40,299 nucleotides of DNA from a bacterium (GTDB lineage: Bacteria; Verrucomicrobiota; Kiritimatiellia; CAIVKH01): NCBI GenBank assembly GCA_043802525.1, contig JAZDKY010000134.1:1-40299 (forward strand). The letters are read 5' to 3'. Made by a program: the position numbers and the translations under genes. Shown here piece by piece: positions 13,832 to 40,299 of the stretch (position 1 is the first letter of the stretch; each line of letters opens with the position of its first letter). The notes under the pieces are model-generated. The model saw only the letters and a program-made list of their open reading frames with translations. It did no database searches and had not been told where the DNA came from.

Positions 13832-13863
13832 TGCGGGCAATTCAGGCACACCGGTAAAATGAG

Positions 13864-15405: not shown

Positions 15406-15430
15406 ACGGCACCAAACTGGAGGACGCAAC

Positions 15431-16369: not shown

Positions 16370-16401
16370 GATTTCGTTTCATCAAAGGGAAGGAATTGCA
16401 C

Positions 16402-17097: not shown

Positions 17098-17119
17098 GGG
17101 CCGGAAAGGGGAAGGCGCG

Positions 17120-17803: not shown

Positions 17804-17831
17804 TATCTTGGATTGTTAGAGGCATGCTAGC

Positions 17832-18065: not shown

Positions 18066-18074
18066 GGGAGATAC

Positions 18075-18311: not shown

Positions 18312-18415
18312 AATCATTCGGTTCGGATCGGACGGTTGATTCAGGGGCGGCTCACCTGTCCGGTCCGAACCGGGAAGTGGACTGCCATGATCCGGCATAC
18401 GGAGGAGATGTGTGA

Positions 18416-21400: not shown

Positions 21401-21565
21401 ATTCCGCGCATCCGGAAAGATATTCCCGATATGTGGAGACAATTACAAGCATTGACGAATGCAGCCGAATTGGCCACGTCGCCGGAAGTATTCATAAGCA
21501 AGTATCAGGATGCGCTTAACCAACTGGAAAGGGCTGTGGATGTCATCAGCCAGAAAGATCGATAG
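18416..21565 (+). CDS. Ser/Thr protein kinase. It has an N-terminal zinc ribbon, a Hanks kinase domain, a double zinc ribbon, a transmembrane helix and a long helical TPR-like C-terminal region.
   Basis: GTG start 8 nt after GGAGGAG. LGQGGFGSVWKA, HRDIKPENILL and DFGLA kinase motifs. CPSCAK..CESCG..CPECDR..CGGCG. Transmembrane segment VLLYKVGACALAIALVMANVAW. Confidence 0.9.
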   Translation: MVAKCSQCRAEIASGYRFCPSCGGSVDTEPSSPADPALQSMGDLRTRQDAPRLDSMGDLPTGATSGARQLTRERAGDVLRERYELLEELGQGGFGSVWKAQDRELGRIVAIKWLHHVTDKEGRRDEMALARFAQEAQLIAKLNHRNTVEIYDRFTDQGDPCIVMEHIEGGNLRQYLKSHGGKLKLDEAAKMIRGVAQGLACAHNSQLIHRDIKPENILLKPEDGELVPKIVDFGLARMESESELNTMGGLGTPFYMPPEQRRDAKLVDHRADIYALGKTFYYMITGDLPDTIDPDKIPSSAISDVILKCVKLSPQERFFSAGDFIEALDDALAGVSHKKEAMPAGDAAALNLCPSCAKPNPSESKFCESCGAGLTRQCPECDRQNSVHKTFCGGCGTDVAAFDKVQEGLASVKGLLAEKNWSRAIEEAEAVAGISFNRKKGLGLLAELNECGATARNAEKRIEELAHQIDKAETDGVAHETVLEMIKEYSSLEPRRNWESRVAALHTAIDDRDFEECCQRAMDAADKGQFSDAQETVLAYLTTYPDGRHADEAKTLVETELPDREARYAENQALASAEKALDAVDGSNHQKSIDKILRALAGCQQCIARYEARLQGNRLGDAIRKLTEARGEVEKELEFRSLESSVKDLILAKDYVAACLKCREFLSKNDHHKSEAATLRDKALELEENRKAAADAAARRKLRVLLYKVGACALAIALVMANVAWRNYRLGREYDHAIDSRNLQDAERLAKKRKLSAERQLLLDYLRSSDKAKYDYDRRFADISAALSVYGGDAWNRIQSKLAEAARGDLHEAPRLYAEAADEAKAVQTRYGKLITTRQHFEAKYTVDVVSTLQALAPEEAHRLSDLVESAANEKDIDRGLDLYRKADLELNQAIQIAVKQKSAEADASAARKAAESAYADVGSDKLLKNVTELREQVVSQLAEARAMYDKRDYDQAATSWQECSDLVNQISDRIREMKSRRLLFQQSLKNYEKDIPRIRKDIPDMWRQLQALTNAAELATSPEVFISKYQDALNQLERAVDVISQKDR

Positions 21566-23096
21566 CGCTACGCAAGTGTCGGCCAAGGTCAGCGCCTGTC
21601 TTGTGCTCTTCATCAGCTCAACGCTGTGCGGCTGCAGCACAATCAAGAACACGCGGCAGGTGGTTGAGAAGATAGATGGGCAACCTATCGCGGGAACGGA
21701 ACGGCGATTCGTCGATGTAGTTAAGATGACCAACGTGTGGGATTCAGAGAAACCGGAGTTTCAACGATTGACTGTTACCGCCAAAGGCAGCAAGGAGTGG
21801 CAGGTAGAGCAGTTTGAGGAAACGTGGGTAGTACAAGATAAAGAGCGTAGCTACGCCGTGGTCGGGAGAGGCGAGGGCTACAACCTCGGTTACGACTTAT
21901 TCGCGGATCCCGTTTTCGCCTGTGTCGGCTTGCTTGTATACCCGTTCGCATTTCTTGCGCCGCGCACGGACAATCCAGACGCGTCGTTTGGAAATATAAA
22001 CCGGACTGTAAGTCAGTGGCTCTTCGCTGCATTGCCTGGTATCAGTAATTGCGCCAAGCCTATTCGCACATCGTCGCGATCGTTGAAGAGCCGTGATGAA
22101 CTGCCTCCTGCGGGCCGGGCCACGTCGGTCGACGCGTGGATTGAATTGTTGGTTTACGATGGCGGCAACGTCCGGGTAATGGAGCAAGCGTTAGATGCAG
22201 ACAAGCCGCTCCTGTTGCCGGTCTGTGATTTCGCCCTGAATTCACCCGGTCACCCGGAGGTGACTTTCGTCGTGACTTCCAAGACCGCAATGGTTCGCGG
22301 CCCCAATAGACTGACGATCCGTCTCAACGAAACGGAATTGGTCAGGCGAAAAGCGGCCGCACAGAAGGCGAACCCTGACGAGCGTCGCCAAGCGTATGCC
22401 TTCCATCCGGGTCATGATCTCGATGACCACGAAGGCGGGAACGGAGATGGGCTTCTCCGGGCCGGAGAGACCGTACTTCTTGTCATGACGGTGGATAATT
22501 CGGGCAGTGGTCCAGGTTACGGCGTGGAACTCGCCGCTTCGGTCAAGGGTGGTGACGTTTCGGTGGGAAGCCCGCAGCCTGTTACGCAGTTGAAGGGGAA
22601 ATCTTCGGCGAGGATCGGCGTGCCTCTCACGGTGCCCCTGAAATCGCCGGACGGAGTAGCTCGTATCGAAGTCGTCGCCGCAGATGCCGCAGGCGTTACG
22701 TCATCACCGGTTGCGGTGGAGATTCCGTACTCCCACCGCCCATTGCCGGAGCTGCAACTCGGCAGCGTGGACGTCCAGCGCGCCCCGGACGGTGCGGACG
22801 GCGATTTTGGTGTCATCATTAAAGTGCGAAACCGCGGCGATGGCGATTCCGAGCGCACCAAGCTGGCCATTGCGGGTGAACCCAGCGCCGGCCGTGTGGT
22901 ACGGGGGCAAATTGAATTTGGAACCCTTGCCCCGCACTCCCAGACGCAAGCGGTCCTGCGCCTCAATTCCACAGGGGCTACGTCTGATGTCACGACGATC
23001 CAAGTCCGCATCGTTGAGCGCCTCGGCGTTGGCTCAGACGAAAAGAGCCTCGATATACCCATTCCAGCGAGTGGCAAGCGGACCTCGCGCAAGTAG
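21540..23096 (+). CDS. Lipoprotein (lipobox TLCGCS); hypothetical. It overlaps the upstream kinase 3' end by 26 nt.
   Basis: MSSARK...LVLFISSTLCGCS. Overlap suggests translational coupling with the kinase. Confidence 0.55.
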   Translation: MSSARKIDSATQVSAKVSACLVLFISSTLCGCSTIKNTRQVVEKIDGQPIAGTERRFVDVVKMTNVWDSEKPEFQRLTVTAKGSKEWQVEQFEETWVVQDKERSYAVVGRGEGYNLGYDLFADPVFACVGLLVYPFAFLAPRTDNPDASFGNINRTVSQWLFAALPGISNCAKPIRTSSRSLKSRDELPPAGRATSVDAWIELLVYDGGNVRVMEQALDADKPLLLPVCDFALNSPGHPEVTFVVTSKTAMVRGPNRLTIRLNETELVRRKAAAQKANPDERRQAYAFHPGHDLDDHEGGNGDGLLRAGETVLLVMTVDNSGSGPGYGVELAASVKGGDVSVGSPQPVTQLKGKSSARIGVPLTVPLKSPDGVARIEVVAADAAGVTSSPVAVEIPYSHRPLPELQLGSVDVQRAPDGADGDFGVIIKVRNRGDGDSERTKLAIAGEPSAGRVVRGQIEFGTLAPHSQTQAVLRLNSTGATSDVTTIQVRIVERLGVGSDEKSLDIPIPASGKRTSRK

Positions 23097-23116
23097 GCAC
23101 ATGTTACGGTCGCAGT

Positions 23117-25678
23117 ATGGACGAAAGCGTGAACAACAGGGAGACGGTTCGGGCAGAATCCGCCGGCCGACACGAGTTTGCGCTTGAAGCAGGAGACATT
23201 CTCGATCAGTACCGGATTCTCCGCCCGCTCGGCGCGGGCGGGATGGGCGAGGTGTACCTCGCTGAGAACGTCCACAACCACAAACGCTTCGCCCTGAAAG
23301 TCCTCCCCGCCGCGCTCGCGCGGGACCCCCAGTTCGTTGGCCGGTTCAAGGTCGAGTCGCGCGTCATGATGGACCTCGACCACCCGGGCATCGTGCGCGT
23401 CCACCACATTGGCGAAGCTCGAGGGCTCTATTACCTGACCATGGACTTCGTGGAGGGTCCCGACGGCGCGCCCTTTGATCTCGAAGACCTGCTGCGCGAG
23501 CAGGGAGGCAGGATCAAGGACGAAAAGGTCGTTCGGGAACTCGCTCTCCAAATATGTGACGCGCTGGACTATGCGCATCATTTCCGCGGTGAGGGCATTG
23601 TCCATCGTGACCTAAAGCCGGCGAACATCCTGCTGCCCGGAGGACAGAAGACAGAGGACGGAAGACAGATCACGGTCAGAATCAGCGATTTCGGCCTGGC
23701 GAAGGTGGTGGGCGATGCCTATCTGAAGAGCATCATCGAGCGGTCGGTCAGTCTTTCGATCGGCGGTGAAGTCTCTATGGGGGACGAAAAGACCGGAGAC
23801 GGAAGGCCGAAACATCAAAAGACCAGCACGCGGTCCATCCTCGGTACCTATGACTACATGAGTCCCGAGCAGAAGCTTGGCCTGCCCGTCGATGCCCGCA
23901 GCGATATCTACGCGCTGGGCATGATGCTGTACAAGATGCTGACAGGCCGGAAAGCCGAAGGCGCTTACCGGCGGCCCTCGCAACTCGGGTGCGGCAGGGC
24001 GTGGGACTCTGTAGTTGAGCGTTGCATCCAGCAGGCACCCGAAGACCGCTATGCATCGGTGGCGGTACTGCAGAGGGATATTGAAAAAACCACACGGACG
24101 ACACACCGCAGGGCAATCCTGTCACTTATTGGCATAGCTGCCGGTGTACTTCTGGCAGCAGGCTTCCATTTCTTCTTGAACACCTCTAGGTCAAACTTGA
24201 AGGAGTCTGTGACTCAACCTGAACATGGAGTTTCCGATGTATCACTTGGTAGCGCTGCGGATTTGAAGCCCCGTTCTGTCATCGCATCGGGTATTGTTTA
24301 CACTCAGCTTCCAGACGGATTTGTCATTGTTTCGGGCGGCTTGTACATCTCCACAGAGCCTTCCGGCGCGACGGTATCTGTGGACGGGTATGAAATTACA
24401 AATAGCCCCGCAACATTTCGCGACATGGCAGCCGGTTCGCAGATTGTTACGGTCAAACTGGCCGACTACGAGTCGCAAACATTCGACATCGATGTTCCTG
24501 AAGACGATTTTGCGAAGACCAATGTTGTCCTTGTCAGAAAAAAGGGCCTCATCGAAGTCACGAGCCGACCCGCAGGTGCCCAAGTCATGCAGGGATCCCG
24601 CGTGCTGGGTGAAACCCCGATGAGCGCTCGCCTGGAAGTGGGCCCACAAATTTTGACGATTCGCAAATATGGCTTCCGAGATGCTGACGTCCGCGCCGAC
24701 GTCACAGCTGACCTCAAGACGATCGTGTCCGAAGTGACTCTGACGTCAGAGCTCGGCGCTATCCGGATCACGGCACGACCCGCCTCGGGCGAGGGTAAGT
24801 ATTTTGATATTCTGGATAATCGAATCGAGCTTGGTTCCGCAGATCGCAAAATAGAGAACTCGTCCTTCCCGTGTGTGGTGACCGGACTTGCTGTCGGGGC
24901 TATTCAAGTCGCGGTCGCTGTAGACGGATACAAAACAGCAACAAATATGGTGACGGTCGCCGGTGGTCGCACGACGGATACCGAATTCGTACTCGCGCGG
25001 CTTGGTCCCGTTGACGGCGCCGACTGGTCCGTGCCGGGAAGTACGAACTTAACAAACGCTCAAGAGATGGCATATCAGGCTCAGACGAACGGGACAAATC
25101 CATCCTTGGCATCCTCTGTGCAGCTCGTTGCCGATGGGAAACTCCTATTGCGTCAAAACAAGCTTGCCGAGGCGGAGAAGATGTTCCAATCCGTCCTTGG
25201 CCAATCGCCCAACATGCTTGACGCGCGCATCGGCTTGGCGGCCTGCCGGTACAATGCGGGCGATCTGGACCAGGCGCAGCGACTCGTCGGTGACGTACTG
25301 GCCGTAGAAGCGAAGAACGCACAGGCGCTCGGCCTCATGGGTATCATTGCGTGGCGCGAGGGCCGGTACCGCGATGCCGTAGAGATACTCAGCGAGGCTG
25401 TCCGCGCCGACCCGACCGATGCGCAACTGCACAGCTACTTGGGCGTGGCGTTTCAGGCGCGCAAGCGGTACGCCGAAGCCACCCAAGAACTGCGGACTGC
25501 TGTAACGCTGGATCCCAACAACGCGGAGGCCCAGTACAATCTTTCCGTGGTCCTTGCTACGGCCCGCTCGCCTTTGTTGCAGGAAGCCAAGGCACACTAC
25601 GACCTCGCGCTGCAATTGGGGTACCCCCGGGACGACGCGATGGACAAGCTTTTATCAAGGATTCCGCAAGCACATTGA
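23117..25678 (+). CDS. Ser/Thr protein kinase with a transmembrane helix, extracytoplasmic PEGA-like domains and C-terminal TPR repeats.
   Basis: LGAGGMGEVYLA, HRDLKPANILL and DFGLAK. Transmembrane segment AILSLIGIAAGVLLAAGF. PEGA-like GAQVMQGSRVLGETPM..L..G. TPR-like repeats (AEAQYNLSVVLA...). Confidence 0.9.
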   Translation: MDESVNNRETVRAESAGRHEFALEAGDILDQYRILRPLGAGGMGEVYLAENVHNHKRFALKVLPAALARDPQFVGRFKVESRVMMDLDHPGIVRVHHIGEARGLYYLTMDFVEGPDGAPFDLEDLLREQGGRIKDEKVVRELALQICDALDYAHHFRGEGIVHRDLKPANILLPGGQKTEDGRQITVRISDFGLAKVVGDAYLKSIIERSVSLSIGGEVSMGDEKTGDGRPKHQKTSTRSILGTYDYMSPEQKLGLPVDARSDIYALGMMLYKMLTGRKAEGAYRRPSQLGCGRAWDSVVERCIQQAPEDRYASVAVLQRDIEKTTRTTHRRAILSLIGIAAGVLLAAGFHFFLNTSRSNLKESVTQPEHGVSDVSLGSAADLKPRSVIASGIVYTQLPDGFVIVSGGLYISTEPSGATVSVDGYEITNSPATFRDMAAGSQIVTVKLADYESQTFDIDVPEDDFAKTNVVLVRKKGLIEVTSRPAGAQVMQGSRVLGETPMSARLEVGPQILTIRKYGFRDADVRADVTADLKTIVSEVTLTSELGAIRITARPASGEGKYFDILDNRIELGSADRKIENSSFPCVVTGLAVGAIQVAVAVDGYKTATNMVTVAGGRTTDTEFVLARLGPVDGADWSVPGSTNLTNAQEMAYQAQTNGTNPSLASSVQLVADGKLLLRQNKLAEAEKMFQSVLGQSPNMLDARIGLAACRYNAGDLDQAQRLVGDVLAVEAKNAQALGLMGIIAWREGRYRDAVEILSEAVRADPTDAQLHSYLGVAFQARKRYAEATQELRTAVTLDPNNAEAQYNLSVVLATARSPLLQEAKAHYDLALQLGYPRDDAMDKLLSRIPQAH

Positions 25679-27276: not shown

Positions 27277-27316
27277 GCGGAGGACGGAAAGGCGGAGGAC
27301 GGAAGGCGGAGGACGG
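27277..27316 (+). repeat. Three tandem copies of the purine-rich motif GGCGGAGGACGGAA(A).
   Basis: Read from the sequence. A similar GGAGGACGG/GAAGACGG run occurs inside the AAA gene at 37942..37975. Confidence 0.6.
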
Positions 27317-27702: not shown

Positions 27703-30609
27703 ATGGACAAGTCCTTGGGCAGCCGGGATACCACGCCGCCGGATGATCCATCCGGCAGCGATGGCATCAAGAGCGTCGGCGACTGGCAGACGCTGCGGGC
27801 GATGGCCGGGCGGAAGCGGTTCAAGGCCGGGGAGATGATCCTTGGCCGGTACAAGGTCACCGGCGAACTGGGCCAGGGCGGGATGGGTGTCGTCTACCGC
27901 TGCTTCGACGAGGTCGGCGGGATCGACGTGGCGCTCAAGGCGCTGCCGCCCGAACTCTCGCACGATTCTTCGGAAATGGCGGAGGTACGCGAGAACTTCC
28001 AGCTCGTTTCGCGGCTGGTCCACACCAACATCGCCCAGATCCGCACCCTCGATAAGGACCCCGCCACGGGCGACTACTACCTCGTCATGGAGTGCGTGGA
28101 TGGGATCAACCTGCGCGACTACCGGAAGAAGCACGGCGGGAAACTGACGCTCGAACAGGTGATGCGGATCGCCCCGCAGGTGGCCGGGGCGCTCGACTAT
28201 GCGCACGGCCAGAAAATCATCCACAGGGACATCAAGCCCGCCAACGTGATGATCCGTGCCGACGGCACGGTGAAAGTGCTGGACTTCGGACTGGCCGCGC
28301 AGCTTCACACGTCCATGTCGCGGGTCAGCAAGGCCCATTACGGGACCAGCGGCACGGGCCCGTACATGGCGCCGGAGCAGTGGGAGGGCGACTACCAGGA
28401 CGCGGCGACGGATCAGTACGCGTTCGGTGCCTTGGTCTATGAGCTGCTGGCAGGGCGTTGTCCTTTCGAAAGCCACGACTCGGGCGTCCTGCGGCATGCC
28501 GTCCTGCACGGGAAGGCCAAACCGATCGACGGCGTGCCCGCACGGGAAATGGATGCGATCTTGCGCGCGCTGGCGAAGACGCGGGAGGATCGGTTTGCGG
28601 ATTGCGCGGAGTTTGTGGAGGCGCTGGGCGGGGGGAAGATTGAACCACGGAGGACACGGAGTAACGCGGAGGGGAAGAGGAGTGGGGTTCGTGGTTTGCG
28701 GTTGGGGGTTGGGGTGGTTCTGCTCGTGGCCCTTGGCTACGGGTCCCTTGTGTCCCTCAAGTCGCTTTCCGCGCGCCGCGCGGAGGAGCGCACCGCACAG
28801 GACGCCGCGGCGAAGCAGAACGACGCGTCAAAACAGCAGATTGCCCAACTCCAACAGGCCGTCGAGCAGGCACTGACGTCTGGCAATTTGAAGGCCGCGG
28901 GAGAGAGCCTGTCTGACTTGGAGGAACTGGGCGTGCAGATACCGGCCGTGCGTGATCTGAGAGCCCGATACGAAGCAGCCGCGGGCGCACAAGAAGTGAG
29001 GAAGCGGCAGGCAGAAGCGTCGCTGGAATACGAGGCGGCACAGAAACTCGAGCCTGGGCAGGGGTTGGAGAAGAAGCTGAAGGAACTGGAACTGGTCTGG
29101 CGAGAGGCGGAACAGGCGAAGAAGGACGAGGCGTGGGGGCCGGCGCTGACGTCGTACGACCATCTCCTGGGGAAGTGCCGGGAGCTTGGGGAATGGGATG
29201 CGGCGCGCAAAGGCGCGAAGGCGCAGGGCCGGAAGGCGGAAGGCGCAAGACAGTCGGCGTCGGGCAGGAACGCGGAGCGGGATGCCTTGGCGCTATGGAA
29301 TGGCGCGGCCTCGGCGGCCTCGGCCGCAGCGACGGCCTATGAGGCGGGTGATTTTGCGGGCGCTTCCAAGGGTTGGAAGGATGCTGAAGTGAAGTTCCAA
29401 TCTTCGGAGCAGAGGGCTGTCGCGGTGCAGGCATACGGGAAGGCGAAGGCGGACTACGATGCCGCGGCGTCGCGGGCGGACCGGGAACTGCTGGGGCAGT
29501 ACGCCGCAGGCAAGTGGAAGGAAGCCCAGCAGCAGGCCAGGACGGCGGAGCAGTCCGGGGACACGCCGGACGAGGGGCGCCGGGCGTACGAGGCCGCGCT
29601 GGCGGCCTTGGACGCGGCGGTCAAGGAGGCGGAGGAGAAGTCGATCCCGATCCTGAAGGTCACGGCGAAGGCCGACGGAGCAGATGTCAAAGCTACGGTC
29701 AGCGACGGCAAGAGCACGTGGATGACGCCGGTGGAGCTGAAACTGGCGAAGAACCAGTCCTATACGTTTCAAGTAACCTATGCGGGCGGCGGCAAGCGCT
29801 GGAAAGCGGTGCGCGACACCCGAACATCCGATTGGGTGGGCGTGAAGCAGTGGGCGGTGGCGCTGGAGGCGTCGCGAGGGCCCGAGCCGGGCCGGCCGTG
29901 GACGGTGCCGGAGCTGGGGATGGAGTTCGTGCCGGTGGAGGCGGGCAGCTTCCAGATGGGATCGGAAGACGGCCATAACGACGAGAAACCCGTACACGGC
30001 GTGAGGATCACGAAGCCGTTCTGGATGGGGAAATACGAGGTGACGCAGGAGGAGTACCGGAAGATCAGCGGTCAGGCGCCTTCCTACTTCAAGGGCGACC
30101 GGCTGCCTGTTGAGACGGTCAACTGGAACGAAGCCGTTGCGTTCTGCCGCAAACTGACCGAACAGGAGCAGGCGGCGGGGCGGTTGCCGGAAGGGTATGA
30201 ATACCGGTTGCCGACGGAGGCGGAATGGGAGTACGCGGCGCGCGGCGGGACCTTGAGTCGAGGGACGGGGTATGCGGGCGGCGACGATATTGACCGGGTG
30301 GCGTGGTATACGTCGAATAGCGGGAGTACGACGCATGAGGCGGGCACGAAAGCAGCCAATGAGTTGGGCCTCTACGACATGAGCGGGAACGTGTGGGAAT
30401 GGTGCCTGGACGCATATCAGGACAGCTATACGGGCGCTCCGGCGGATGGTTCGGAGCGTACTGGTTCCGGGGCCGTTTCGCGGGTTCTCCGTGGCGGGTC
30501 GTGGCCCGACGATGCGACGTACTGTCGCGTCGCCTACCGCCGCAGGAACGACCCGACGGACTCCTACTACTGCATTGGCTTTCGTGTTGTGTTGGGGGCG
30601 GTCCGTTGA
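27703..30609 (+). CDS. Transmembrane Ser/Thr protein kinase with a C-terminal extracytoplasmic FGE-sulfatase/C-type-lectin-fold domain carrying the DGR variable region. DGR target 1.
   Basis: LGQGGMGVVYRC, HRDIKPANVMI and DFGLAA. Transmembrane segment GVGVVLLVALGYGSLVSL. FGE domain (RLPTEAEWEYAARGG...GNVWEWCLDAY...RVLRGGSW...GFRVVL). VR1 lies at the 3' end. Confidence 0.9.
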   Translation: MDKSLGSRDTTPPDDPSGSDGIKSVGDWQTLRAMAGRKRFKAGEMILGRYKVTGELGQGGMGVVYRCFDEVGGIDVALKALPPELSHDSSEMAEVRENFQLVSRLVHTNIAQIRTLDKDPATGDYYLVMECVDGINLRDYRKKHGGKLTLEQVMRIAPQVAGALDYAHGQKIIHRDIKPANVMIRADGTVKVLDFGLAAQLHTSMSRVSKAHYGTSGTGPYMAPEQWEGDYQDAATDQYAFGALVYELLAGRCPFESHDSGVLRHAVLHGKAKPIDGVPAREMDAILRALAKTREDRFADCAEFVEALGGGKIEPRRTRSNAEGKRSGVRGLRLGVGVVLLVALGYGSLVSLKSLSARRAEERTAQDAAAKQNDASKQQIAQLQQAVEQALTSGNLKAAGESLSDLEELGVQIPAVRDLRARYEAAAGAQEVRKRQAEASLEYEAAQKLEPGQGLEKKLKELELVWREAEQAKKDEAWGPALTSYDHLLGKCRELGEWDAARKGAKAQGRKAEGARQSASGRNAERDALALWNGAASAASAAATAYEAGDFAGASKGWKDAEVKFQSSEQRAVAVQAYGKAKADYDAAASRADRELLGQYAAGKWKEAQQQARTAEQSGDTPDEGRRAYEAALAALDAAVKEAEEKSIPILKVTAKADGADVKATVSDGKSTWMTPVELKLAKNQSYTFQVTYAGGGKRWKAVRDTRTSDWVGVKQWAVALEASRGPEPGRPWTVPELGMEFVPVEAGSFQMGSEDGHNDEKPVHGVRITKPFWMGKYEVTQEEYRKISGQAPSYFKGDRLPVETVNWNEAVAFCRKLTEQEQAAGRLPEGYEYRLPTEAEWEYAARGGTLSRGTGYAGGDDIDRVAWYTSNSGSTTHEAGTKAANELGLYDMSGNVWEWCLDAYQDSYTGAPADGSERTGSGAVSRVLRGGSWPDDATYCRVAYRRRNDPTDSYYCIGFRVVLGAVR
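30470..30609 (+). repeat. DGR variable repeat VR1 (3' end of kinase-FGE gene 1).
   Basis: 140-nt alignment to TR1 shows 12 mismatches, all at TR adenines (examples: ggAAcAac to ggCCcGac; ccAaccgcAAc to ccTaccgcCGc; AAcAAcAAcAtt to TAcTAcTGcAtt). Confidence 0.9.
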
Positions 30610-30664
30610 GGAATGGGTATTGTACTGAGCTTCTGGGCTTCTGTGTTCTGAACTACTGTTTGAA

Positions 30665-30690
30665 AGCGCGCGGAGCGCGCTCGAATTTTT
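30665..30690 (+). terminator. GC hairpin (agcgcgc-gga-gcgcgct) followed by a T5 run, 56 nt downstream of VR1. It is a DGR target-recognition-type hairpin and/or an intrinsic terminator.
   Basis: Read from the sequence. The homologous position after VR2 has ccccgc-gaa-gcgggg. Confidence 0.5.
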
Positions 30691-30737
30691 CGGCTGTGTC
30701 GAAAGGGGGACCATGACACACGGGGGACGAAACGATA

Positions 30738-30877
30738 GGGCCGTTTCGCGGGTTCTCCGTGGCGGGTCGTGGAACAACGATGCGACGAACTGTCGCGTCG
30801 CCAACCGCAACAGGAACGACCCGACGAACTCCAACAACAACATTGGCTTTCGTGTTGTGTTGGGGGCGGTCCGTTGA
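30738..30877 (+). repeat. DGR template repeat TR1 (orphan). It is AAC-rich and translates in target frame as [42 protein letters not shown].
   Basis: Identical to VR1 except at 12 adenine positions. It is intergenic. The upstream gggggaccatgaca resembles the avd 3' end (gggggccgggacatgaca) found before TR2. Confidence 0.9.
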
Positions 30878-31045
30878 AGAATCGGACAGCCAGATACCGT
30901 GCGCTTCCCGCGAGAGCGGGTCGCCCGGTCCGTGCAAACCCATTCCAGTTTTGTCCTCCTGATCCCGCCGGCGAGCGGGGCGAAGACGCGGCGCGGGGCT
31001 GGGGCTGGTACCCTGAGGATCTCGAAGGGGAAAGCCCCGGCCCCG
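30878..31045 (+). ncRNA. Conserved structured RNA element 3' of TR1 (DGR spacer-like region). It includes the shared motif ccagatac and the conserved block aagacgcggcgcggggcYggggcYggtaccctgagg..tcgaRggggaaRgccccggc.
   Basis: The same roughly 60-nt block recurs downstream of TR2 (37607..37665). A C/U difference in the 5' strand preserves pairing (G-C versus G.U) with gccccggcccc. Confidence 0.55.
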
Positions 31046-31253
31046 CATGCTCCGCAGCGGGCACGGAATGGCTGCGCAGCACGACGGGCTATGACCGATC
31101 CGCTGGACATCGCCAAGAAGAATATTCCGCGGGCGGGCGACCGCAAGGGGGCATGACAACCCGGCCAGATTCGCGATATGATTGCATCTGAATGGTTCTT
31201 TATATGACGGTGGCGATGTTGATAAGTCTTGCTGGCAAGATGTTCCTTTCCCT

Positions 31254-31870
31254 ATGAAACCGCCCGACAACAGCCTCGGTGGTCAGTCGACAAATCCCGG
31301 CGCGGATCTGCCGGACGGCATCCATTCGATCGGCGACGTCCTGACGCAGCGCCAGCGGAAGCGGTTCAGGGCCGGGGACGTGCTGGCGGGGCGCTACAAG
31401 ATTCTCGGCGAACTCGGGCAGGGTGGGATGGGGTTGGTGTTCCGTTGCCTTGACGAGGTCGGCGGGATCGAGGTCGCCGTGAAGATGCTTCCTCCGGAAG
31501 TCTCGCGCGACACGGGCGAGATGGAGGAGGTCCGTGAGAATTTCCAACTGGTCGCGAAGCTCGCCCACCCGAACATCGCCACGGTCAGGACCTTGGAACG
31601 GGATCCTGCCACGGGCGAATACCTCCTCGTCATGGACAGCGCCGAGGGCGCCAGCCTGCGGAAGTGGCGAAAAGAAGGCGCAGGGGGCCGTCGCACGCTC
31701 GAAGAGATTCTGCCCGTCCTTGAACACGTGGCGTCGGCGCTGGATTACGCGCACGGGCGCAAGGTCGTCCACCGGGATATCAAGCCCTCCAATATCTCAT
31801 GTGGCGCGGGGCACGTGGTTGGAGGTTAGGGCTTGGTGTGGCCGTGATCCTTGCGCTGGGCTGGTGGGGA
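31254..31870 (+). pseudogene. Truncated paralogue of the kinase-FGE gene. It keeps the kinase N-terminal half (near-identical to 33066..33610) and is then internally deleted to a fragment of the transmembrane region.
   Basis: MKPPDNSLGGQSTNPGADLPDGIHSIGDV...HRDIKPSNI, then SCGAGHVVGG*. The downstream ggcttggtgtggccgtgatccttgcgctgggctggtgggg matches the transmembrane-coding segment at about 34061. Confidence 0.75.
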
Positions 31871-31953
31871 AACGTATAAGCACCTCAGCTTCTGTGGTTC
31901 TTTGCCGTTTTCCTCCAACACGACAACCTGATGATTTCCCCTTTAAGCGCGCG

Positions 31954-32211
31954 TCATCGGTACACCTCGCGTCGGTTGCCGATCTTCAAGACCAGCACGA
32001 TCAATTGTCTGTCCCGAACGGTGTAGATGATGCGCCAGTCGCCAACGCGGACACGATACTGGTCATCTTGCCCGCCCAGTTTTTCCACGCCGGGCGGGCG
32101 CGGGTTATCGGCAAGGCTTTCCAGCCTTCGGAGAATCCGGGAATGAACGTCCGGCTGAAGCAGGTCCAACTGCTTGCGGGCCGGTCGCGTGATCGTGACA
32201 GTGTACTTCAA
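31954..32211 (-). CDS. Type II toxin, RelE/ParE family.
   Basis: ...NPRPPGVEKLGG..QYRVRVGDWRIIYTVRDRQLIVLVLKIGNRREVYR is the classic RelE/ParE C-terminus. 4-bp overlap with the upstream antitoxin. The start is probably TTG. Confidence 0.75.
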   Translation of the reverse strand: MKYTVTITRPARKQLDLLQPDVHSRILRRLESLADNPRPPGVEKLGGQDDQYRVRVGDWRIIYTVRDRQLIVLVLKIGNRREVYR

Positions 32212-32474
32212 GCACGGGCCTTGCGAGTGCGCTTATAATCCTCAAGGGTCATCGCGCTTTTTGGATTCCGCTCGTAGTCGCGCAGGGCCTTCAAGGCGTC
32301 GCGGGCATCTGTTGCGTCCTCGAATCGGCGCAGTAGCTCCAAGTCTTTGGCGGAAACCAGCGCCGCGACCGGCGTCCCACGTCGTTCCACTACAATGCGT
32401 TCGCCGCCGTAGGACACTTTATTGATGGCGTCGGCGAAATGGATACGCGCTTCGGCTATGCTTAATATAGTCAT
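32208..32474 (-). CDS. Type II antitoxin, Phd/YefM family.
   Basis: MTILSIAEARIHFADAINKVSYGGERIVVERRGTPVAALVSAKDLELL fits the Phd/YefM fold signature. It is the only opposite-strand gene pair in a long +strand run. Confidence 0.75.
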   Translation of the reverse strand: MTILSIAEARIHFADAINKVSYGGERIVVERRGTPVAALVSAKDLELLRRFEDATDARDALKALRDYERNPKSAMTLEDYKRTRKARA

Positions 32475-32559
32475 GTCCTTCCCCCTCTGTTCATGTACAT
32501 TCCGTACTAAATGTACAGAGTACGGGTGCCGATGTCAAAGGACGGAATCAACGGGCTCG

Positions 32560-32950
32560 CGAAGGAATACCTCATTCCGTTGTGGGGCCAGCTCTTCACC
32601 TTGGCCTTTTTCAGGATGCGTCCACGCCATCTCCGAACGACTGAATTCGGGGCGCAGACGGGTTCCGACTCCCGGCGGTCAACATGGAATGTATACCCTT
32701 GGAATTCTGGGCAAGGCACGTGGCTTCCTCAGAAAGACGCCGGGAACTACAGTTCGAGTTGGGGGGGAATATGTGGGAGCGTTGCGAGGACTACTATGGC
32801 GGCCAGAGTGGCTCCCGTGTTCTTCGCGGCGGTTCTTGGTTCGACGGTGCTTCTGTGACTTTGCTATTGTCGAGCCGTGTCGACGACCTCCCCGGGAGTC
32901 AAAGCGGCGATATCGGTTTCCGCGTGGTGTTGGCTCGTGCTTCGCCTTGA
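32560..32950 (+). pseudogene. Decayed FGE-domain 3' fragment with a degenerate former VR (..[24 protein letters not shown]...IGFRVVLA). It is the remnant of a third DGR target.
   Basis: Recognisable FGE C-terminal motifs in a broken frame. It differs from both TRs at non-adenine positions as well, so it is no longer a homing substrate. Confidence 0.55.
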
Positions 32951-33065: not shown

Positions 33066-35864
33066 ATGACACCGCCCGATAACAGCCTCGGTGGTCAGTC
33101 GACGAATCCCGGCGCGGACCTGCCGGACGGCATCCACTCCATCGGCGACGTCCTGACGCAGCGCCAGCGCAAGCGGTTCAGGGCCGGGGACGTGCTGGCG
33201 GGGCGCTACAAGATTCTCGGCGAACTCGGACAGGGCGGGATGGGGTTGGTGTTCCGCTGCCTTGACGAGGTCGGCGGGATCGAGGTCGCCGTGAAGATGC
33301 TTCCTCCGGAAGTCTCGCGAGACACGGGCGAGATGGAGGAGGTCCGTGAGAATTTCCAACTGGTCGCGAAGCTCGCCCACCCGAGCATCGCCACGGTCAG
33401 GACCTTGGAACGGGACCCTGCCACGGGCGAATACCTCCTCGTCATGGACAGCGCCGAGGGCGTCAGCCTGCGGAAGTGGCGAAAAGAAGGCGCAGGGGGC
33501 CGTCGCACGCTCGCAGAGATTCTGCCCGTCCTTGAACATGTGGCGTCGGCGCTGGATTACGCGCACGGGCGCAAAGTCGTCCACCGTGACATCAAGCCCT
33601 CCAATATCATGGTGTCGCCCGACGGCACGGTCAACGTGTTGGACTTCGGCTTGGCGGCGCAGATCCACACATCGTTTTCCCGCGTCTCGCAAACGAAATA
33701 TGGGACGAGCGGGACGGGCCCGTACATGGCGCCGGAACAGTGGCGCGGGGAATACCAGGACGCGAAGACCGATCAGTATGCGCTGGGGGTGATGACGTAC
33801 GAATTGCTGGCGGGGCGGCTGCCGTTCGAGAGTCATGATGCGTCGGTCTTGAAACAGGCTGTGTTGGACCATGAGCCGACGCCCATCGCGGGGTTGGACC
33901 CTGCTGCGATGGCGGTGCTCCGCCGCGCGTTGGCGAAGAAGCGTGAAGAAAGGTTTGCAAGCTGTGCGGAGTTTGTGGAGGCGCTGGGGGGTGGGAAGAT
34001 TTCACCGCAGAGGACGCCGAGGAACGCAGAGGGAAGGAGGAGTAGATTCGGGGGTTTGTGGTTGGGGGTTGGTGTGGCCGTGATCCTCGTCCTGGGCTGG
34101 TGGGGATGGATGGTATGGCGCCAGGGAAGTGCGCCTGAGGAACAGTCTGCGCGGGTGTCTGCGCAGACGAAGCCGAATACGGCCGCTGAACAGCCAGATG
34201 GGCAAGCGAGCCAAGCGCAGCCGATAACCCTCGAAGATCTGGATAAGTTAGACTTCAGCCCGATAGTCACCCTACCGACATCAGTACGCAATGGCGCCGC
34301 GTACATTGCAACCGACCCGGCGGGGGCGGCGGTTGCGATAGGAGCGGCAGGGAAGACTGCGCCGGCTGAGTTCCTCAATCTTCCTGCGGGCGTGTGTACG
34401 GCGCGGGTATCGCTTTCGGGCTACTACGACACGAGTGTCCTACTCCTCGTCACCGGGGACCGGTTCACCAAAACGAACGTCGTCCTGCGCCGCCACAGCG
34501 GGAAAGTCCGGCTGTCCAGTACGCCAACCGAGGCGGAAATATGGCGGGACGGGCAGAGGCTGGGCATGACGCCCGAGATTCTCGGACCCTTCCCAGCCGA
34601 GTCGATCGTGTTCGAGTTGAAGAAGCCGGGTTACCGCCCGGCGACCGTCACCGTGGAGGTCCGGAAGGACGAAGCCACCGACCGTACCGCGAGCCTCGAA
34701 AAGGCGTCCGGCTGGCTTCGCGTTGTGGCGCAAGGAAGGCCTGCTGGTGAAGCGGGCGAATTGGAGATCGACGGCCGGAGCGTGGGCGTCGTCAAGCTCC
34801 CCTACGTCGCGGGCCCGTTCGATCCCGCGAAGGTCAAGGTGCGCTTCGTCGGCGCAGGCGGCGCGTCGGCGGAGGCCGCAGCCTCCGTGGAGGACACCAG
34901 AACCAACGTGGTCACGCTGGTCTTCGAGGCGCAGCCGAGGGATGGCGAAGACTGGACCGTCAAGAACTTGGGCATGCTGGTGAAGTGGATCCCGGCGGGC
35001 ACGTTCATGATGGGCAGCACGCCGGAGGAACGGGCGTGGGCCGCCGGGTCGGAGGGCAAGGGGCAGAAGGAATGGTTTGCCGGTGAAGGCGATCAGCCGC
35101 GGAGCACGAAGGTGGATCCGGGTTTCTGGTTGGGACAGACCGAGGTCACGCGGGGTCAGTGGAAACAGTTCATGGCAGACAATCCCTCGTTTCGAACCGA
35201 TGCGGAGAAAAGCGGCCAGGCATGGTGCCTTGACATCAAAGGCGACAAGCAATGGAAGCTCATGAAGGGTAAGAGCTGGCGGGATCCGAACTTCGAGCAG
35301 GACGATACGCACCCGGTTGTGTGCATATCGTGGAACGACGCGACCGCCTTCTGCGCTTGGCTGACTCGTAAGGAACGGGACGGCGGCCGCCTCCCGGAGA
35401 GCCTGGTTTACCGCCTTCCATCAGAGGCGGAATGGGAGTATGCCTGCAGAGCGCAAAAGGAGCAGACGCGGTTCTGGTGGGGAGACGCTGTGATGGACGG
35501 AGAAGGGCGAGTGAACGTGGGGGGGACGGAAAAGATGCCGAATGGAACCACTTGGAGCGTGAGCTTCTCGTTTGACGATGGCTGGCCCTACACGGCCCCG
35601 GTGGACAGCTATGGGACCAGAGGGCGCAATGGCTTTGGTTTGGCGGATATGCTGGGCAACGTCTGGGAGTGGTGCCTCGACGGCTGGTCGGAGCAGGGCG
35701 CGCAGGTCCAGGTATACAAGGCCGATGCTTCGCGGCGCGTTGTGCGGGGCGGGTCGTTCAACTTTCAACCCGGTGGCGTCCGTTGCGCGTATCGCGCCAG
35801 GACCGATCCTTCGCTTCCGGACGGCGGCGATGGCTTTCGGGTTGGTCTGGGTGTTTCCCGCTGA
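33066..35864 (+). CDS. Transmembrane Ser/Thr protein kinase with a C-terminal extracytoplasmic FGE-sulfatase/C-type-lectin-fold domain carrying VR2. DGR target 2.
   Basis: LGQGGMGLVFRC, HRDIKPSNIMV and DFGLAA. Transmembrane segment LWLGVGVAVILVLGWWGW. FGE domain (RLPSEAEWEYACRA...GNVWEWCLDGW...RVVRGGSF...GFRVGL). Confidence 0.9.
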   Translation: MTPPDNSLGGQSTNPGADLPDGIHSIGDVLTQRQRKRFRAGDVLAGRYKILGELGQGGMGLVFRCLDEVGGIEVAVKMLPPEVSRDTGEMEEVRENFQLVAKLAHPSIATVRTLERDPATGEYLLVMDSAEGVSLRKWRKEGAGGRRTLAEILPVLEHVASALDYAHGRKVVHRDIKPSNIMVSPDGTVNVLDFGLAAQIHTSFSRVSQTKYGTSGTGPYMAPEQWRGEYQDAKTDQYALGVMTYELLAGRLPFESHDASVLKQAVLDHEPTPIAGLDPAAMAVLRRALAKKREERFASCAEFVEALGGGKISPQRTPRNAEGRRSRFGGLWLGVGVAVILVLGWWGWMVWRQGSAPEEQSARVSAQTKPNTAAEQPDGQASQAQPITLEDLDKLDFSPIVTLPTSVRNGAAYIATDPAGAAVAIGAAGKTAPAEFLNLPAGVCTARVSLSGYYDTSVLLLVTGDRFTKTNVVLRRHSGKVRLSSTPTEAEIWRDGQRLGMTPEILGPFPAESIVFELKKPGYRPATVTVEVRKDEATDRTASLEKASGWLRVVAQGRPAGEAGELEIDGRSVGVVKLPYVAGPFDPAKVKVRFVGAGGASAEAAASVEDTRTNVVTLVFEAQPRDGEDWTVKNLGMLVKWIPAGTFMMGSTPEERAWAAGSEGKGQKEWFAGEGDQPRSTKVDPGFWLGQTEVTRGQWKQFMADNPSFRTDAEKSGQAWCLDIKGDKQWKLMKGKSWRDPNFEQDDTHPVVCISWNDATAFCAWLTRKERDGGRLPESLVYRLPSEAEWEYACRAQKEQTRFWWGDAVMDGEGRVNVGGTEKMPNGTTWSVSFSFDDGWPYTAPVDSYGTRGRNGFGLADMLGNVWEWCLDGWSEQGAQVQVYKADASRRVVRGGSFNFQPGGVRCAYRARTDPSLPDGGDGFRVGLGVSR

Positions 35865-35867
35865 GGC
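35729..35867 (+). repeat. DGR variable repeat VR2.
   Basis: 139-nt alignment to TR2 shows 16 mismatches, all at TR adenines (examples: cAAtcaa to cTTtcaa; tAAcgtAcgAtg to tGGcgtCcgTtg; AtcgAAtccgA to TtcgCTtccgG; cAgcAAcAAtgg to cGgcGGcGAtgg). Confidence 0.9.
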
Positions 35868-35926
35868 ATGGTAGTTGTTCTGTGTCCTGAGCTTCTGGGT
35901 TCTGGTTTCTGAGGTTCTGAAAACTA

Positions 35927-35941
35927 ACCCCGCGAAGCGGG
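35927..35941 (+). promoter_or_regulatory. GC hairpin with a GAA triloop (ccccgc-gaa-gcgggg), 60 nt downstream of VR2 and just upstream of the RT start. DGR target-recognition-type hairpin.
   Basis: Read from the sequence. The segment between VR and hairpin (ctgagcttctggg.ttctg.gtt.ctga) is conserved with the VR1-downstream region. Confidence 0.5.
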
Positions 35942-35952
35942 GCCGAAAATGT

Positions 35953-37014
35953 ATGGCCGTAACCTTCAAGCATCTGTACGCGCAGGTCTGGGACTTCGAA
36001 AACCTGTGGCTGGCTTATCAGAAGGCCCGCCGGGGCAAACGGTATGACGAGCCTGTGGCGAGGTTCGACAGCAACGCGGAGGAGAATATTCTCCAGCTAC
36101 AGTCGGAACTGCGCGACCGCTGCTGGACACCCGGGCCGTACCGCCACTTCTACGTTTGGGAGCCCAAGAAGCGAAGGATATCCGCCGCGCCGTTCCGCGA
36201 CCGCGTTGTGCACCACGCCCTAGTGAACGTGCTGGAGCCGATCTATGAAGCGCGATTCAGCGGTTCTTCGTATGCCTGCAGGAAAGGGAAGGGCACACTG
36301 GCGGCGATGCTCAAGGCGCATTGGGGCGTCCGCAACTGCGCGTGGTTCCTCAAGGGCGATATCGTGAAATTCTTTCCCTCTGTGGATCACGAGGTGCTCC
36401 TGAGCGTTCTCCAGAGGAAGATCGCGGACGTCGATGTCCTGGCGATGATTCGCGTCATCCTCGATTCCGGGCGGGGTGTCTTTGATGATGAGCGGCCGCC
36501 GATGTGGTTCGCGGGCGACGACCTGCTTGCGCCCGCGCTCCGGCCCAAAGGGCTTCCGATCGGCAACCTGACCAGCCAGTTCTTTGCAAACGTCCTTCTC
36601 AACGAACTCGACCAGTTTGTGCACACCCGACTTTCGCCGCGCCTCTATGTCCGCTACAGCGACGACTTCGTGCTTTTCGATCACGACCGCGGCAAGGTGG
36701 AGCCCGTGCGCGGTCCGATCGAGGAGTGCCTTGAGTCGCTGCGCCTGAGGATGCATCCGGGCAAGTCCCATCTTCGGCCTTCCCGGCAGGGGCTCCGGTT
36801 CCTGGGTTTCCGGCTTCTTCCGTCGACGCGAAGGGTGGCTCGCGAAAACCTGACGCGTTTCCGGCGACGTATGCGGACGTGCGGGCATCTGCGGAGGGGA
36901 AATCGAATAACCGTCGCGCGCGTGGGCGCATCCGTGCGTGGCTGGTTGAGTCACGTGGACCATGCGAATGCGTCCGCCGTCACAAGGAGGTTGTTGTCCG
37001 ATGTCCGGTTCTGA
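35953..37014 (+). CDS. Diversity-generating retroelement reverse transcriptase.
   Basis: The hallmark DGR RT motif IGNLTSQFFANVLLNELD is present, as is RYSDDFVLF (catalytic YxDD) and the N-terminal FENLWLAYQKARRGKRYD. The gene sits between a VR and a TR. The in-frame upstream extension to 35875 is unlikely. Confidence 0.9.
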   Translation: MAVTFKHLYAQVWDFENLWLAYQKARRGKRYDEPVARFDSNAEENILQLQSELRDRCWTPGPYRHFYVWEPKKRRISAAPFRDRVVHHALVNVLEPIYEARFSGSSYACRKGKGTLAAMLKAHWGVRNCAWFLKGDIVKFFPSVDHEVLLSVLQRKIADVDVLAMIRVILDSGRGVFDDERPPMWFAGDDLLAPALRPKGLPIGNLTSQFFANVLLNELDQFVHTRLSPRLYVRYSDDFVLFDHDRGKVEPVRGPIEECLESLRLRMHPGKSHLRPSRQGLRFLGFRLLPSTRRVARENLTRFRRRMRTCGHLRRGNRITVARVGASVRGWLSHVDHANASAVTRRLLSDVRF

Positions 37015-37354
37015 TCGCGCGGAATCCCCGCTATTCGTCAAGACAAGGGACTTCATGGGCTGGCTGTTCCAGCACACGGCCAAGTTCCCCAAGGTCTACC
37101 GGCATACGCTGACAAACCGATTGGAAGAAAGTATGCTGGATTTTCATCGCTGTCTTGGTGTCGCCGCGTTGACGGGCGATGAGGTAGCCCTCGCACGTGC
37201 GGACGTCGAGCTGTGGCAACTGCGCCAGCTTCTCCGCTTGGCAAACGACATGGGATTCTTCCCCGCTCGCCTGATGGAGTACAGCGCCCCACGGCTCGCA
37301 GAGCTCGGGAGCCTGCTTGGCGGGTGGCGGAGGAAGACGGGGGCCGGGACATGA
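37001..37354 (+). CDS. avd: Avd-like accessory variability determinant (small basic four-helix-bundle protein). It overlaps the RT 3' end.
   Basis: AGGAGG RBS 10 nt upstream. About 117 aa. ...AKFPKVYRHTLTNRLEESMLD...LAELGSLLGGWRRK resembles Bordetella phage Avd / TIGR02436-type proteins. It lies immediately upstream of TR2. Confidence 0.7.
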   Translation: MSGSDRAESPLFVKTRDFMGWLFQHTAKFPKVYRHTLTNRLEESMLDFHRCLGVAALTGDEVALARADVELWQLRQLLRLANDMGFFPARLMEYSAPRLAELGSLLGGWRRKTGAGT

Positions 37355-37361
37355 CAGCGGC

Positions 37362-37500
37362 GTTCGCGGCGCGTTGTGCGGGGCGGGTCGTTCAACAATC
37401 AACCCGGTAACGTACGATGCGCGTATCGCGACAGGAACGATCCATCGAATCCGAACAGCAACAATGGCTTTCGGGTTGGTCTGGGTGTTTCCCGCTGAGG
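37362..37500 (+). repeat. DGR template repeat TR2. It is AAC-rich and translates in target frame as RVVRGGSFNNQPGNVRCAYRDRNDPSNPNSNNGFRVGLGVSR.
   Basis: Identical to VR2 except at 16 adenines. It starts 8 nt after the avd stop. Confidence 0.9.
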
Positions 37501-37665
37501 CGTCGAACTGCCAGATACGGCAAGCCCGCGGCTGCGCCGCGATCCTGCCGTCCGAGCACCTCCATGCCCGTCCCGGCATCCGGATCGCGCCCCTTTGGGC
37601 GCGACAAAGACGCGGCGCGGGGCCGGGGCCGGTACCCTGAGGTTGTCGAGGGGGAAGGCCCCGGC
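37501..37665 (+). ncRNA. Conserved structured RNA element 3' of TR2 (DGR spacer-like region). It is homologous to 30878..31045.
   Basis: Shared ccagatac and the block aagacgcggcgcggggccggggccggtaccctgaggttgtcgagggggaaggccccggc. Stem gccggggcc/ggccccggc. Confidence 0.55.
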
Positions 37666-37718
37666 GTCGCATTCCGAGGCGGGGTTGTGCAGCATGTACG
37701 GCGAGTAAGGAGGTTCTC

Positions 37719-39939: not shown

Positions 39940-40025
39940 GGGTTTGCCGGTTGACTTTCAATCGAGGAAACCACGAAACACCCAAGATGGCACAGCCGCA
40001 ACCGAAGAAGAAGGAAACCACTGAA

Positions 40026-40165
40026 CCCTCCCAAGGCGGGCAGGCCCTCCCAAGGCGGGCAGGCCCTCCCAAGGCGGGCAGGCCCTCCCAAGGCGGGCAG
40101 GCCCTCCCAAGGCGGGCAGGCCCTCCCAAGGCGGGCAGGCCCTCCGAAGGCGGGCGGGCCTGGTC
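40026..40165. repeat. Minisatellite: a 19-bp unit (caaggcgggcaggccctcc) in six perfect tandem copies, with a degenerate partial copy on each side.
   Basis: caagg recurs every 19 nt from 40032 to 40127. There are no spacers, so this is not a CRISPR array. Confidence 0.85.
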
Positions 40166-40299
40166 AATGACAATTACAACCGGGCATTGACGACAATTAC
40201 ACTTCCGCATGGGCGGTGGACGATTATGGGCTCCTTTTCCTGTCCCCTGGCCTGTGCAGGAGCCCGGTCCCGCTGAAGGCGGGATGCCCCGCAGGGGCA

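Follow-up and report, generated by a model that had tools for sequence, protein, structure and literature searches.

Can a template repeat (TR) of a diversity-generating retroelement (DGR) that has lost its own reverse transcriptase (RT) still diversify its target with the enzyme of a neighbouring cassette? The question is raised by a stretch of 40,299 nucleotides from a bacterium of the Verrucomicrobiota (Kiritimatiellia; assembly GCA_043802525.1, contig JAZDKY010000134.1), hereafter the window, which is one complete 40,299-bp contig of a metagenome-assembled genome (MAG). The gene order is target 1 with its variable repeat (VR1), 128 nt, TR1, a structured RNA, a decayed third target, target 2 with VR2, RT, avd (accessory variability determinant), TR2, a second structured RNA and a gene for a CdvC/Vps4-like AAA ATPase. 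Two non-identical TRs, each with a cognate VR, thus lie beside a single RT in 40.3 kb, and the locus taken together qualifies as a DGR on all sequence criteria applied. An earlier, sequence-only reading offered two explanations for TR1, namely trans-use of the RT/Avd 5 kb away or a recently decayed second cassette. The two are not mutually exclusive and the evidence agrees with both. With a rough probability of 60%, cassette 1 (target 1/VR1, the VR flank, an avd-3' relic, TR1 and the downstream RNA) is an RT-less satellite served in trans by the enzymes of cassette 2, RT2-Avd2. The principal features are as follows.

27703..30609, + strand: target gene 1, a 968-aa receptor-type Hanks Ser/Thr kinase whose C-terminal FGE-sulfatase/C-type-lectin-fold domain carries VR1
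30470..30614, + strand: VR1, the last 46 codons of target 1, its stop and 5 nt; 12 (+1) mismatches to TR1, all at TR adenines
30738..30882, + strand: TR1, a non-coding template repeat with 27 adenines, 20 of them within 10 AAC codons; 64% identity to TR2
35729-35867, + strand: VR2, the variable repeat in target gene 2; 16 mismatches to TR2, adenine-only
35953..37014, + strand: RT2, a DGR-type reverse transcriptase (Pfam RVT_1)
37001..37354, + strand: avd2, whose last codons (37339-37350) are the 5' strand of the long-range duplex of cassette 2
37363..37501, + strand: TR2, the template repeat of cassette 2

Both repeat pairs have the signature of adenine mutagenesis, and each VR closes at the stop codon of a domain of the FGE-sulfatase/C-lectin-fold type. 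When 30470-30609 and 30738-30877 were compared without gaps, exactly the 12 VR1/TR1 differences reported from the sequence alone were recovered, all at TR adenines, with 128 of 128 non-A positions identical; the earlier statements that TR1 lies 128 nt downstream of its target (counted from the stop at 30609), that TR1 and TR2 are distinct (64% identity) and that each VR matches only its own TR (cross-cassette VR/TR identity is just ~61-65%) were likewise borne out. The mismatch sites in VR1 are 30505, 30506, 30508, 30520, 30535, 30541, 30542, 30559, 30565, 30568, 30571 and 30572, and in the frame of the open reading frame (ORF) 27703-30609 all 12 fall at the first or second position of an AAC codon. 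Nine of the 10 AAC codons are changed, as against none of the seven adenines outside such codons. The repeat extends 5 nt beyond the stop of target 1, the first non-A mismatch being at 30883/30615, and just 3' of the stop codon there is a 13th difference, A in TR1 and G in VR1, at 30878/30610. Because the equivalent position in the related DGR L015 is G in one VR and C in the other, this site is taken as genuinely mutagenised. For the second pair, all 16 mismatches between VR2 and TR2 are at TR adenines. The 12 (+1) adenine-only mismatches of VR1, with 0/128 at non-A positions in a neighbourhood where a relic of a third VR has drifted to ~60% identity, speak for recent retrohoming into VR1, and the intact target 1 together with the seven unchanged adenines outside AAC codons suggests selection on VR1.

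The enzymes that could act on TR1 are few in this window. As the sequence-only reading had stated, TR1 has no adjacent RT or avd: the only ones on the contig lie at 35953-37354, and tblastn with RT2 and Avd2 over the 40.3 kb found no second copy or fragment of either. An autonomous cassette has its own RT, and usually an avd, beside the TR; cassette 1 has neither. RT2 carries the motifs IGNLTSQ and YSDD, and its best match among solved structures is the Bordetella bRT (8ub7_A, 2.2e-48), ahead of group II intron RTs. Avd2 scores 49.8 bits with Pfam bAvd, passing the cut-off of 40, and 69.4 bits with NCBIfam DivGenRetAVD, where the cut-off of 80 is not reached.

How cassette 1 came to lack its enzymes can be read from a comparison of the two cassettes by blastn and MAFFT. 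The segment 30357-30650 (target end, VR and 3' flank) is homologous to 35627-35904, and 30720-31061 (the last ~17 nt of avd, TR and downstream RNA) to 37337-37683, both at ~62-69% identity. Between these blocks cassette 2 has ~1.4 kb, occupied by RT and avd, and cassette 1 has ~44 nt. Two features occupy the interval between VR1 and TR1.

30610..30693, + strand: VR-type 3' flank of VR1, with GAGGAATGG, a CTG/TTCTG-rich tract, a GC hairpin and GAATTTTT
30694..30737, + strand: deletion scar and avd 3'-end relic, 44 nt, including GGGGGACCATGACA (30705-30718) and a relic stop TAG (30736-30738) abutting TR1

Seven related DGRs, with RTs 59-69% identical to RT2, show one order of elements 3' of each VR: GAGGAATGG, then a CTG/TTCTG-rich tract, a GC hairpin whose loop is 3 nt long and an A/T run, up to the start codon of the RT. 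VR1 carries all of these ordered post-VR elements, including the hairpin at 30665-30681 (AGCGCGC-GGA-GCGCGCT, which a scan for terminator-like structures also picks up) and GAATTTTT; the equivalent hairpin of cassette 2 is at 35928-35942. The target-site signal is also present downstream of VR1 in the form seen throughout the clade, with the VR-type GAGGAATGG as opposed to the TR-type GAAGAATCG, and with the hairpin. Since this clade-type VR flank runs straight into an avd-3'-like stretch whose relic stop abuts TR1, cassette 1 began as a complete target-RT-avd-TR unit and lost RT and avd in a single clean deletion of ~1.4 kb. The two cassettes share no exact match longer than 17 nt, and none of the 15-mers of 30600-30737 recurs in the window, so the gap is a deletion and a collapse of the assembly at this junction is ruled out.

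The CTG/TTCTG-rich tract is itself a recurrent feature. It is of variable length, lies between the stop of the VR gene and the GC hairpin (30625-30660 and 35885-35920 in the window) and occurs after each VR in L004, L006, L009, L012, L015, L017 and L018; no TR is followed by it. A role in target-site recognition or as a spacer is possible.

What did the deletion leave in place downstream? The earlier account of the cassette 1 elements holds, but it overlooked a conserved structured RNA that follows TR1. Every TR in the clade has a non-coding region of 170-240 nt downstream, and the window contains only two such elements, one after each TR.

30722..30733, + strand: 5' strand of a long-range duplex, GGGGGACGAAAC, pairing with 30948-30959 so that TR1 is bracketed
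30878..31050, + strand: Sp-like structured non-coding RNA downstream of TR1, with motifs GCCAGATACCG, GGTCCGTGCA..CCATTCCAG and GCGAAGACGCGGCGC
30896-30929, + strand: stem-loop 3' of TR1, at the position of the Avd-binding stem-loop
30993-31046, + strand: long 3' stem-loop, at the position of the RT-binding stem-loop
30975..31048, + strand: tract of raised identity that covers the 3' long stem-loop and matches 37599-37672 of cassette 2 (85% in a repeat search)
37502..37675, + strand: Sp-like structured RNA downstream of TR2, homologous to 30878-31050

The structure was analysed on an alignment of eight cassettes. The motifs GCCAGAAAYCG, GGTCCGAGCA..CCATTCCAG..CCTG, GGGCGAAGACGCGGCGC and GGTA are invariant in the clade, with helices of variable sequence between them. 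RNAalifold gives 42 pairs, 21 of them with compensatory change; the proportion of paired cells is 92%, as compared with 38-46% for slid partners, and none of 500 shuffles reaches the observed value. The RNA of cassette 1 keeps all 50 columns that are invariant across the eight cassettes, and its motifs are nearer to the clade consensus than are those of cassette 2. No Rfam family matches in the window, and the covarying scaffold of this clade is without an Rfam entry. A search of viral contigs with the RNA motif TCCGWGCRNNNYCATTCCAG returned 31 matches, which were taken as chance: none has an RT or a TR/VR pair, and three have a loose match to a second motif nearby.

The last ~12 nt of avd and ~12 nt after CCATTCCAG pair with each other, bracketing the TR, in all eight cassettes (RNAduplex). 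The two strands covary (CGGGAC:GUCCCG, CGGAAC:GUUCCG, CAAGAC:GUCUUG, GUCGGC:GCCGGC, and CGAAAC:GUUUUG in cassette 1), and the contrast between the two cassettes of the window is GAAAC:GUUUU in cassette 1 versus GGGAC:GUCCC in cassette 2. Among seven distinct sequences the paired cells amount to 95% and compensatory change is seen in 7 of 12 pairs, the slid controls being 33-60% paired in a comparison biased in favour of the duplex by the anchoring of its strands with a duplex predictor. The avd-like stretch in front of TR1 is present twice, as GGGGGACCATGACA at 30705-30718 and as a second copy, GGGGGACGAAAC, at 30722-30733. The remnant resembling the avd 3' end that the sequence-only reading had noticed is thus present, yet it is not debris, being one strand of a covarying RNA duplex. 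The retained strand fits the partner strand of cassette 1 and not that of cassette 2. As 30722-30733 has been kept, the deletion ended immediately before an element that the RNA would need.

The layout of these elements recalls that of the Bordetella DGR RNA, in which the long 3' stem-loop of Sp binds the RT and is essential for cDNA synthesis, a stem-loop after the TR binds Avd, and a duplex between upstream and downstream sequences brackets the TR (bioRxiv 10.1101/2023.10.23.563531; PMC6182149). In cassette 1 helices at the corresponding positions are conserved with covariation, their protein partners being assigned by analogy only. The correspondence is inferred from position and topology only.

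The likeness of the two cassettes is not uniform along their length. At 64% identity to TR2, TR1 is no closer to it than to the other TRs of the clade (61-74%), which belong to DGRs with RTs 58-69% identical among themselves. Between cassettes 1 and 2 the 5' half of the downstream RNA is 62% identical (z = -0.4 against 26 other pairs), and the C-terminal domains of targets 1 and 2 share 32% protein identity. TR and 5' RNA values of this order are usual for DGRs with RTs at ~60% identity. A recent duplication of cassette 2 as the origin of cassette 1 is ruled out by the TR and C-terminal domain identities, and the divergence of TR, 5' RNA and C-terminal domains points to old paralogues or separate acquisitions. 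The 3' stem-loop domain departs from this pattern, with 62/73 positions identical (85%; z = 3.4 against 26 other pairs; Fisher P = 0.002 against the 5' domain). A stem-loop likeness of this degree is found between L006 and L012, whose RTs are 86% identical, and pairs with RTs at 58-69% identity have 55-75% there. Of 48 columns with variation in the remaining six DGRs, 39 are the same in cassettes 1 and 2, and each of the two agrees with the others at 29-60%. The shared 3' stem-loop may have arisen by gene conversion or by common constraint. In either case the part of the RNA that the two cassettes share is, by analogy with Bordetella, the part expected to bind the RT. It is chiefly this likeness that sets trans-use of RT2-Avd2 apart from its rivals.

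The course of events that would follow for cassette 1 can be outlined. TR1 would be transcribed, probably by read-through from target gene 1; the hairpin on the way is presumably read through, because in the relatives this hairpin immediately precedes the RT, whose transcription has to pass it. The TR1 RNA would fold into the clade scaffold, with the duplex 30722-30733:30948-30959, the stem-loop 3' of TR1 and the long 3' stem-loop. RT2-Avd2 (35953-37354) may then bind this RNA in trans and copy it into adenine-mutagenised cDNA, which would replace VR1, guided by the 3' homology of VR1 itself and by the hairpin. Since TR1 and TR2 diverge by 36%, their 3' ends included, the two template-target pairs would be orthogonal on one enzyme. 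That avd, TR and brt of a DGR function when supplied in trans is established (PMC5758913). Transcription of TR1, binding by RT2-Avd2, the roles of the helices and current activity are what we infer; the sequence itself favours them in that the deletion spared what would be needed in cis, namely the VR flank with its hairpin, the avd-3' strand, TR1 and the ~170-nt downstream RNA. Of the two explanations first put forward, loss of the enzymes is accounted for by the ~1.4-kb deletion, and the intact cis elements together with the 3' stem-loop common to both cassettes therefore favour continued trans-use, by inference.

Several observations weigh against this reading, and many of them can equally be claimed for a recently orphaned relic, in which RT1 and avd1 were deleted too recently for mutations to have appeared, RT2-Avd2 does not use TR1 and VR1 is frozen. 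A sigma-70-like promoter upstream of TR1 was looked for and not found, and between target 1 and TR1 the hairpin at 30665-30681 with its T-run resembles a terminator. Sequence differences between the cassettes affect both the stem-loop at the Avd position (just ~62% identity) and the long-range duplex, so that recognition by Avd2 is putative. The locus is in flux, with a decayed third target (the pseudogene 31254-32945) directly downstream, and present activity of cassette 1 is putative. The databases searched hold a single copy of the contig and of target 1 and no further ones with which VR1 could be compared between strains. The folding energies of the two downstream RNAs, taken singly, are not significant against shuffles (z = -1.2 and -1.6), so that the case for structure rests on covariation; for the duplex, the predictor-anchored strands temper that covariation in turn. 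The shared 3' stem-loop could also be the product of gene conversion without functional consequence. A relic of this kind would nevertheless require that no point mutation has arisen since the deletion in ~0.5 kb that is otherwise free of constraint, and it sits poorly with 0/128 non-A differences and with covarying helices that are fully intact; it also leaves the 3' stem-loop likeness (85%, against 62-64% elsewhere) unexplained. An intact target 1 ORF adds to the contrast between cassette 1 and a decayed remnant, and the orphaned relic is judged unlikely.

A further point against trans-use of RT2-Avd2 is that the enzyme count covers one contig of a MAG. TR1 might accordingly be served by a different DGR RT/Avd elsewhere in the genome, its proximity to cassette 2 being incidental; DGRs do act on distant sites with components that work in trans (PMC5758913), and TR1 and its 5' RNA domain resemble cassette 2 no more than they resemble other members of the clade. 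Such an arrangement does not predict that the 3' stem-loop, at the RT-binding position, should specifically match cassette 2, and the scar indicates that the enzymes of cassette 1 were once in place, with no second RT or avd fragment in 40 kb, which makes a distant enzyme improbable. An artefact, whether a mis-join or a strain chimera, has to be considered for any metagenome contig, the more so with paralogous repeats nearby that include 564 nt at 95% identity (31254 and 33066). The junction 30600-30737, unique and without a repeated 15-mer, and the longest exact cassette match of 17 nt speak strongly against it, and a repeat collapse would not leave VR1 and TR1 both in place and separated by unique sequence; we regard this explanation as very improbable. 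Satellite use of RT2-Avd2 remains the favoured reading. A more tentative extension of it, for which the balance falls slightly on the negative side, is that the satellite retains a template, target signals and the greater part of an RNA scaffold of its own but has the 3' stem-loop of the DGR next to it, which would act as a modular, exchangeable determinant of RT-Avd choice. Nature would, on this view, already multiplex orthogonal pairs on one DGR enzyme.

How unusual is such a locus? Two TRs for one RT had been called uncommon, a fair description, but DGRs with multiple TRs are already on record (PMC6642488, PMC12386605). In the MetaCSST survey ~20% of 271 multi-VR DGRs have more than one TR, for example that of Stenotrophomonas sp. 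SKA14 with two TRs (PMC6642488), and the Zeta crAss-like phages Lera and ct1yV3 have TR1-TR3, of which TR2 and TR3 show non-A drift (PMC12386605). The locus resembles the surveyed multi-TR DGRs in having one RT gene, more than one TR and a VR for each. Those reports list the architecture only; here the second pair is free of non-A differences, the deletion of RT and avd can be mapped, the RNA scaffold is conserved and one RNA domain is common to the RT-less and the RT-bearing cassette. The layout with an RT-less second pair is recorded in surveys and has not been studied. To our knowledge, a mapped loss of RT and avd with the full RNA scaffold kept, a covarying TR-bracketing duplex in the clade and a likeness to the neighbouring cassette confined to a stem-loop have not been described.

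Compared with the DGR of the Bordetella phage BPP-1 (PDB 8ub7 series), the locus has in common a DGR-type RT, an Avd, adenine-specific differences, a VR at the 3' end of a C-type-lectin-fold domain and a GC hairpin downstream of the VR, as well as a TR placed between upstream (avd 3') and downstream structured RNA with a post-TR stem-loop, a bracketing duplex and a long 3' stem-loop. The RNA elements lack sequence homology to those of BPP-1 and an Rfam family, the likeness being one of position and topology. The gene order is target-RT-avd-TR-RNA here and mtd-avd-TR-Sp-brt in BPP-1, the targets are transmembrane Ser/Thr kinases instead of a phage tail fibre, and two TRs accompany one RT, unlike in BPP-1. 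The hairpin has a 3-nt loop and lies ~55-60 nt after the VR, whereas the phage consensus is a GRNA tetraloop 4-34 bp away (PMC3240598).

Remote or multiple DGR targets are known from Treponema, Legionella and cyanobacteria (PMC5758913, PMC7517822), and in cyanobacteria fusions of Ser/Thr kinases with C-lectin folds are among the targets (PMC7517822). Cassette 1 resembles these systems in its target type and in that RT-Avd would act on a target that is not its neighbour. In the remote and multi-target DGRs a single TR is the source of every VR; in the window the additional target comes with a template and an RNA scaffold of its own. All seven relatives in the clade have a single TR, and L009/L010 and L015 serve two targets from one TR.

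L009 shares with the window an island comprising Band7, FHA, two kinase-FGE targets, RT, avd, TR and the AAA ATPase. A comparison of L009 (ENA ERZ24794676) with L010 (ERZ24794671) shows an identical RT and differences in both VRs, the mismatches to the single TR numbering 24 + 24 in one assembly and 19 + 27 in the other. These VR differences show directly that the clade has DGR activity in nature.

Homologues of the target proteins of the window are found mainly in Lentisphaeria, Victivallales and Verrucomicrobiota. Target 1 matches Pfam Pkinase (2.7e-43) and FGE-sulfatase (2.4e-49); its kinase motifs (G-loop, VALK, HRDIKPAN, DFG and APE) are intact, and it has a single transmembrane helix at approximately residues 332-352. 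The other target genes are the following.

33066..35864, + strand: target gene 2, with kinase, PEGA and FGE-sulfatase domains (Pfam) and VR2 at 35729-35867
31254..32945, + strand: decayed third target gene, delineated by blastn, tblastn and three-frame translation

The first 564 nt of the third target are 95% identical to the start of target 2 (33066-33629, the N-terminus of the kinase); a frameshifting ~420-nt deletion and then stop codons in all frames follow. Its C-terminal end, at 32717-32945, is a C-lectin-fold VR-like relic with its own stop, a TGAGG flank and ~60% identity to TR1/VR1. As a third live VR this relic was ruled out by 49-67 mismatches to either TR, mostly at non-A positions; unlike cassette 1, the gene thus has the features of a decayed DGR remnant. 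Near the 3' region of TR1, the ORFs 30769-31191 (+), 30899-31156 (+) and 30653-31270 (-) have no Pfam match and were taken as GC-rich noise.

Searches for near-identical loci by RT returned three loci among genome contigs, at no more than 45% identity, and two among metagenome contigs, at no more than 60%; the clusters of RT and of target 1 have one member each, the copy on this contig, and an exact-protein look-up of the AAA ATPase gave no record. In L020, identified through a homologue of target 1, two kinase-FGE genes are present with no TR or RT on the contig.

A gene island at 12203-25678 and 37719-38870 is common to the distant relatives L009 and L020. Its products are a Band7/SPFH protein that has a double zinc ribbon, an FHA protein, the CdvC/Vps4-like AAA ATPase and two more Hanks kinases, one of which carries PEGA and TPR domains; in L009 a Snf7-like gene adjoins the ATPase. 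The gene content suggests a signalling and membrane-remodelling module tied to the diversified receptor kinases. A GA-rich repeat, GGAAGACGGAGGACGGAGGACGGAAGAC..., occurs at 23629-23669 inside the kinase ORF 23117-25678, at 27278-27312 upstream of target 1 and at 37932-37972 inside the AAA ATPase ORF. Direct repeats are found at 541-840 and 1666-1965 (89%), in the Calx-beta/BACON protein ORF 145-3369, and at 5183-5246 and 6617-6680 (77%), in the unannotated 1160-aa ORF 3570-7052; both probably reflect repeated domains. Near the contig end, at 40007-40177, lies a perfect 19-nt tandem repeat, CCCTCCCAAGGCGGGCAGG, in ~7 copies.

Without trans-use by TR1, the locus would be no more than a snapshot of a decaying DGR. 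If RT2-Avd2 does serve TR1, it amounts to a natural experiment on DGR specificity, in which one enzyme uses two RNAs that differ almost wholly save for one stem-loop; the stem-loop would then stand out as a recognition module, a point of relevance to the engineering of DGRs for multiplexed targeted mutagenesis. For the bacterium, it would mean that the cell diversifies two receptor kinases independently for the cost of one RT.

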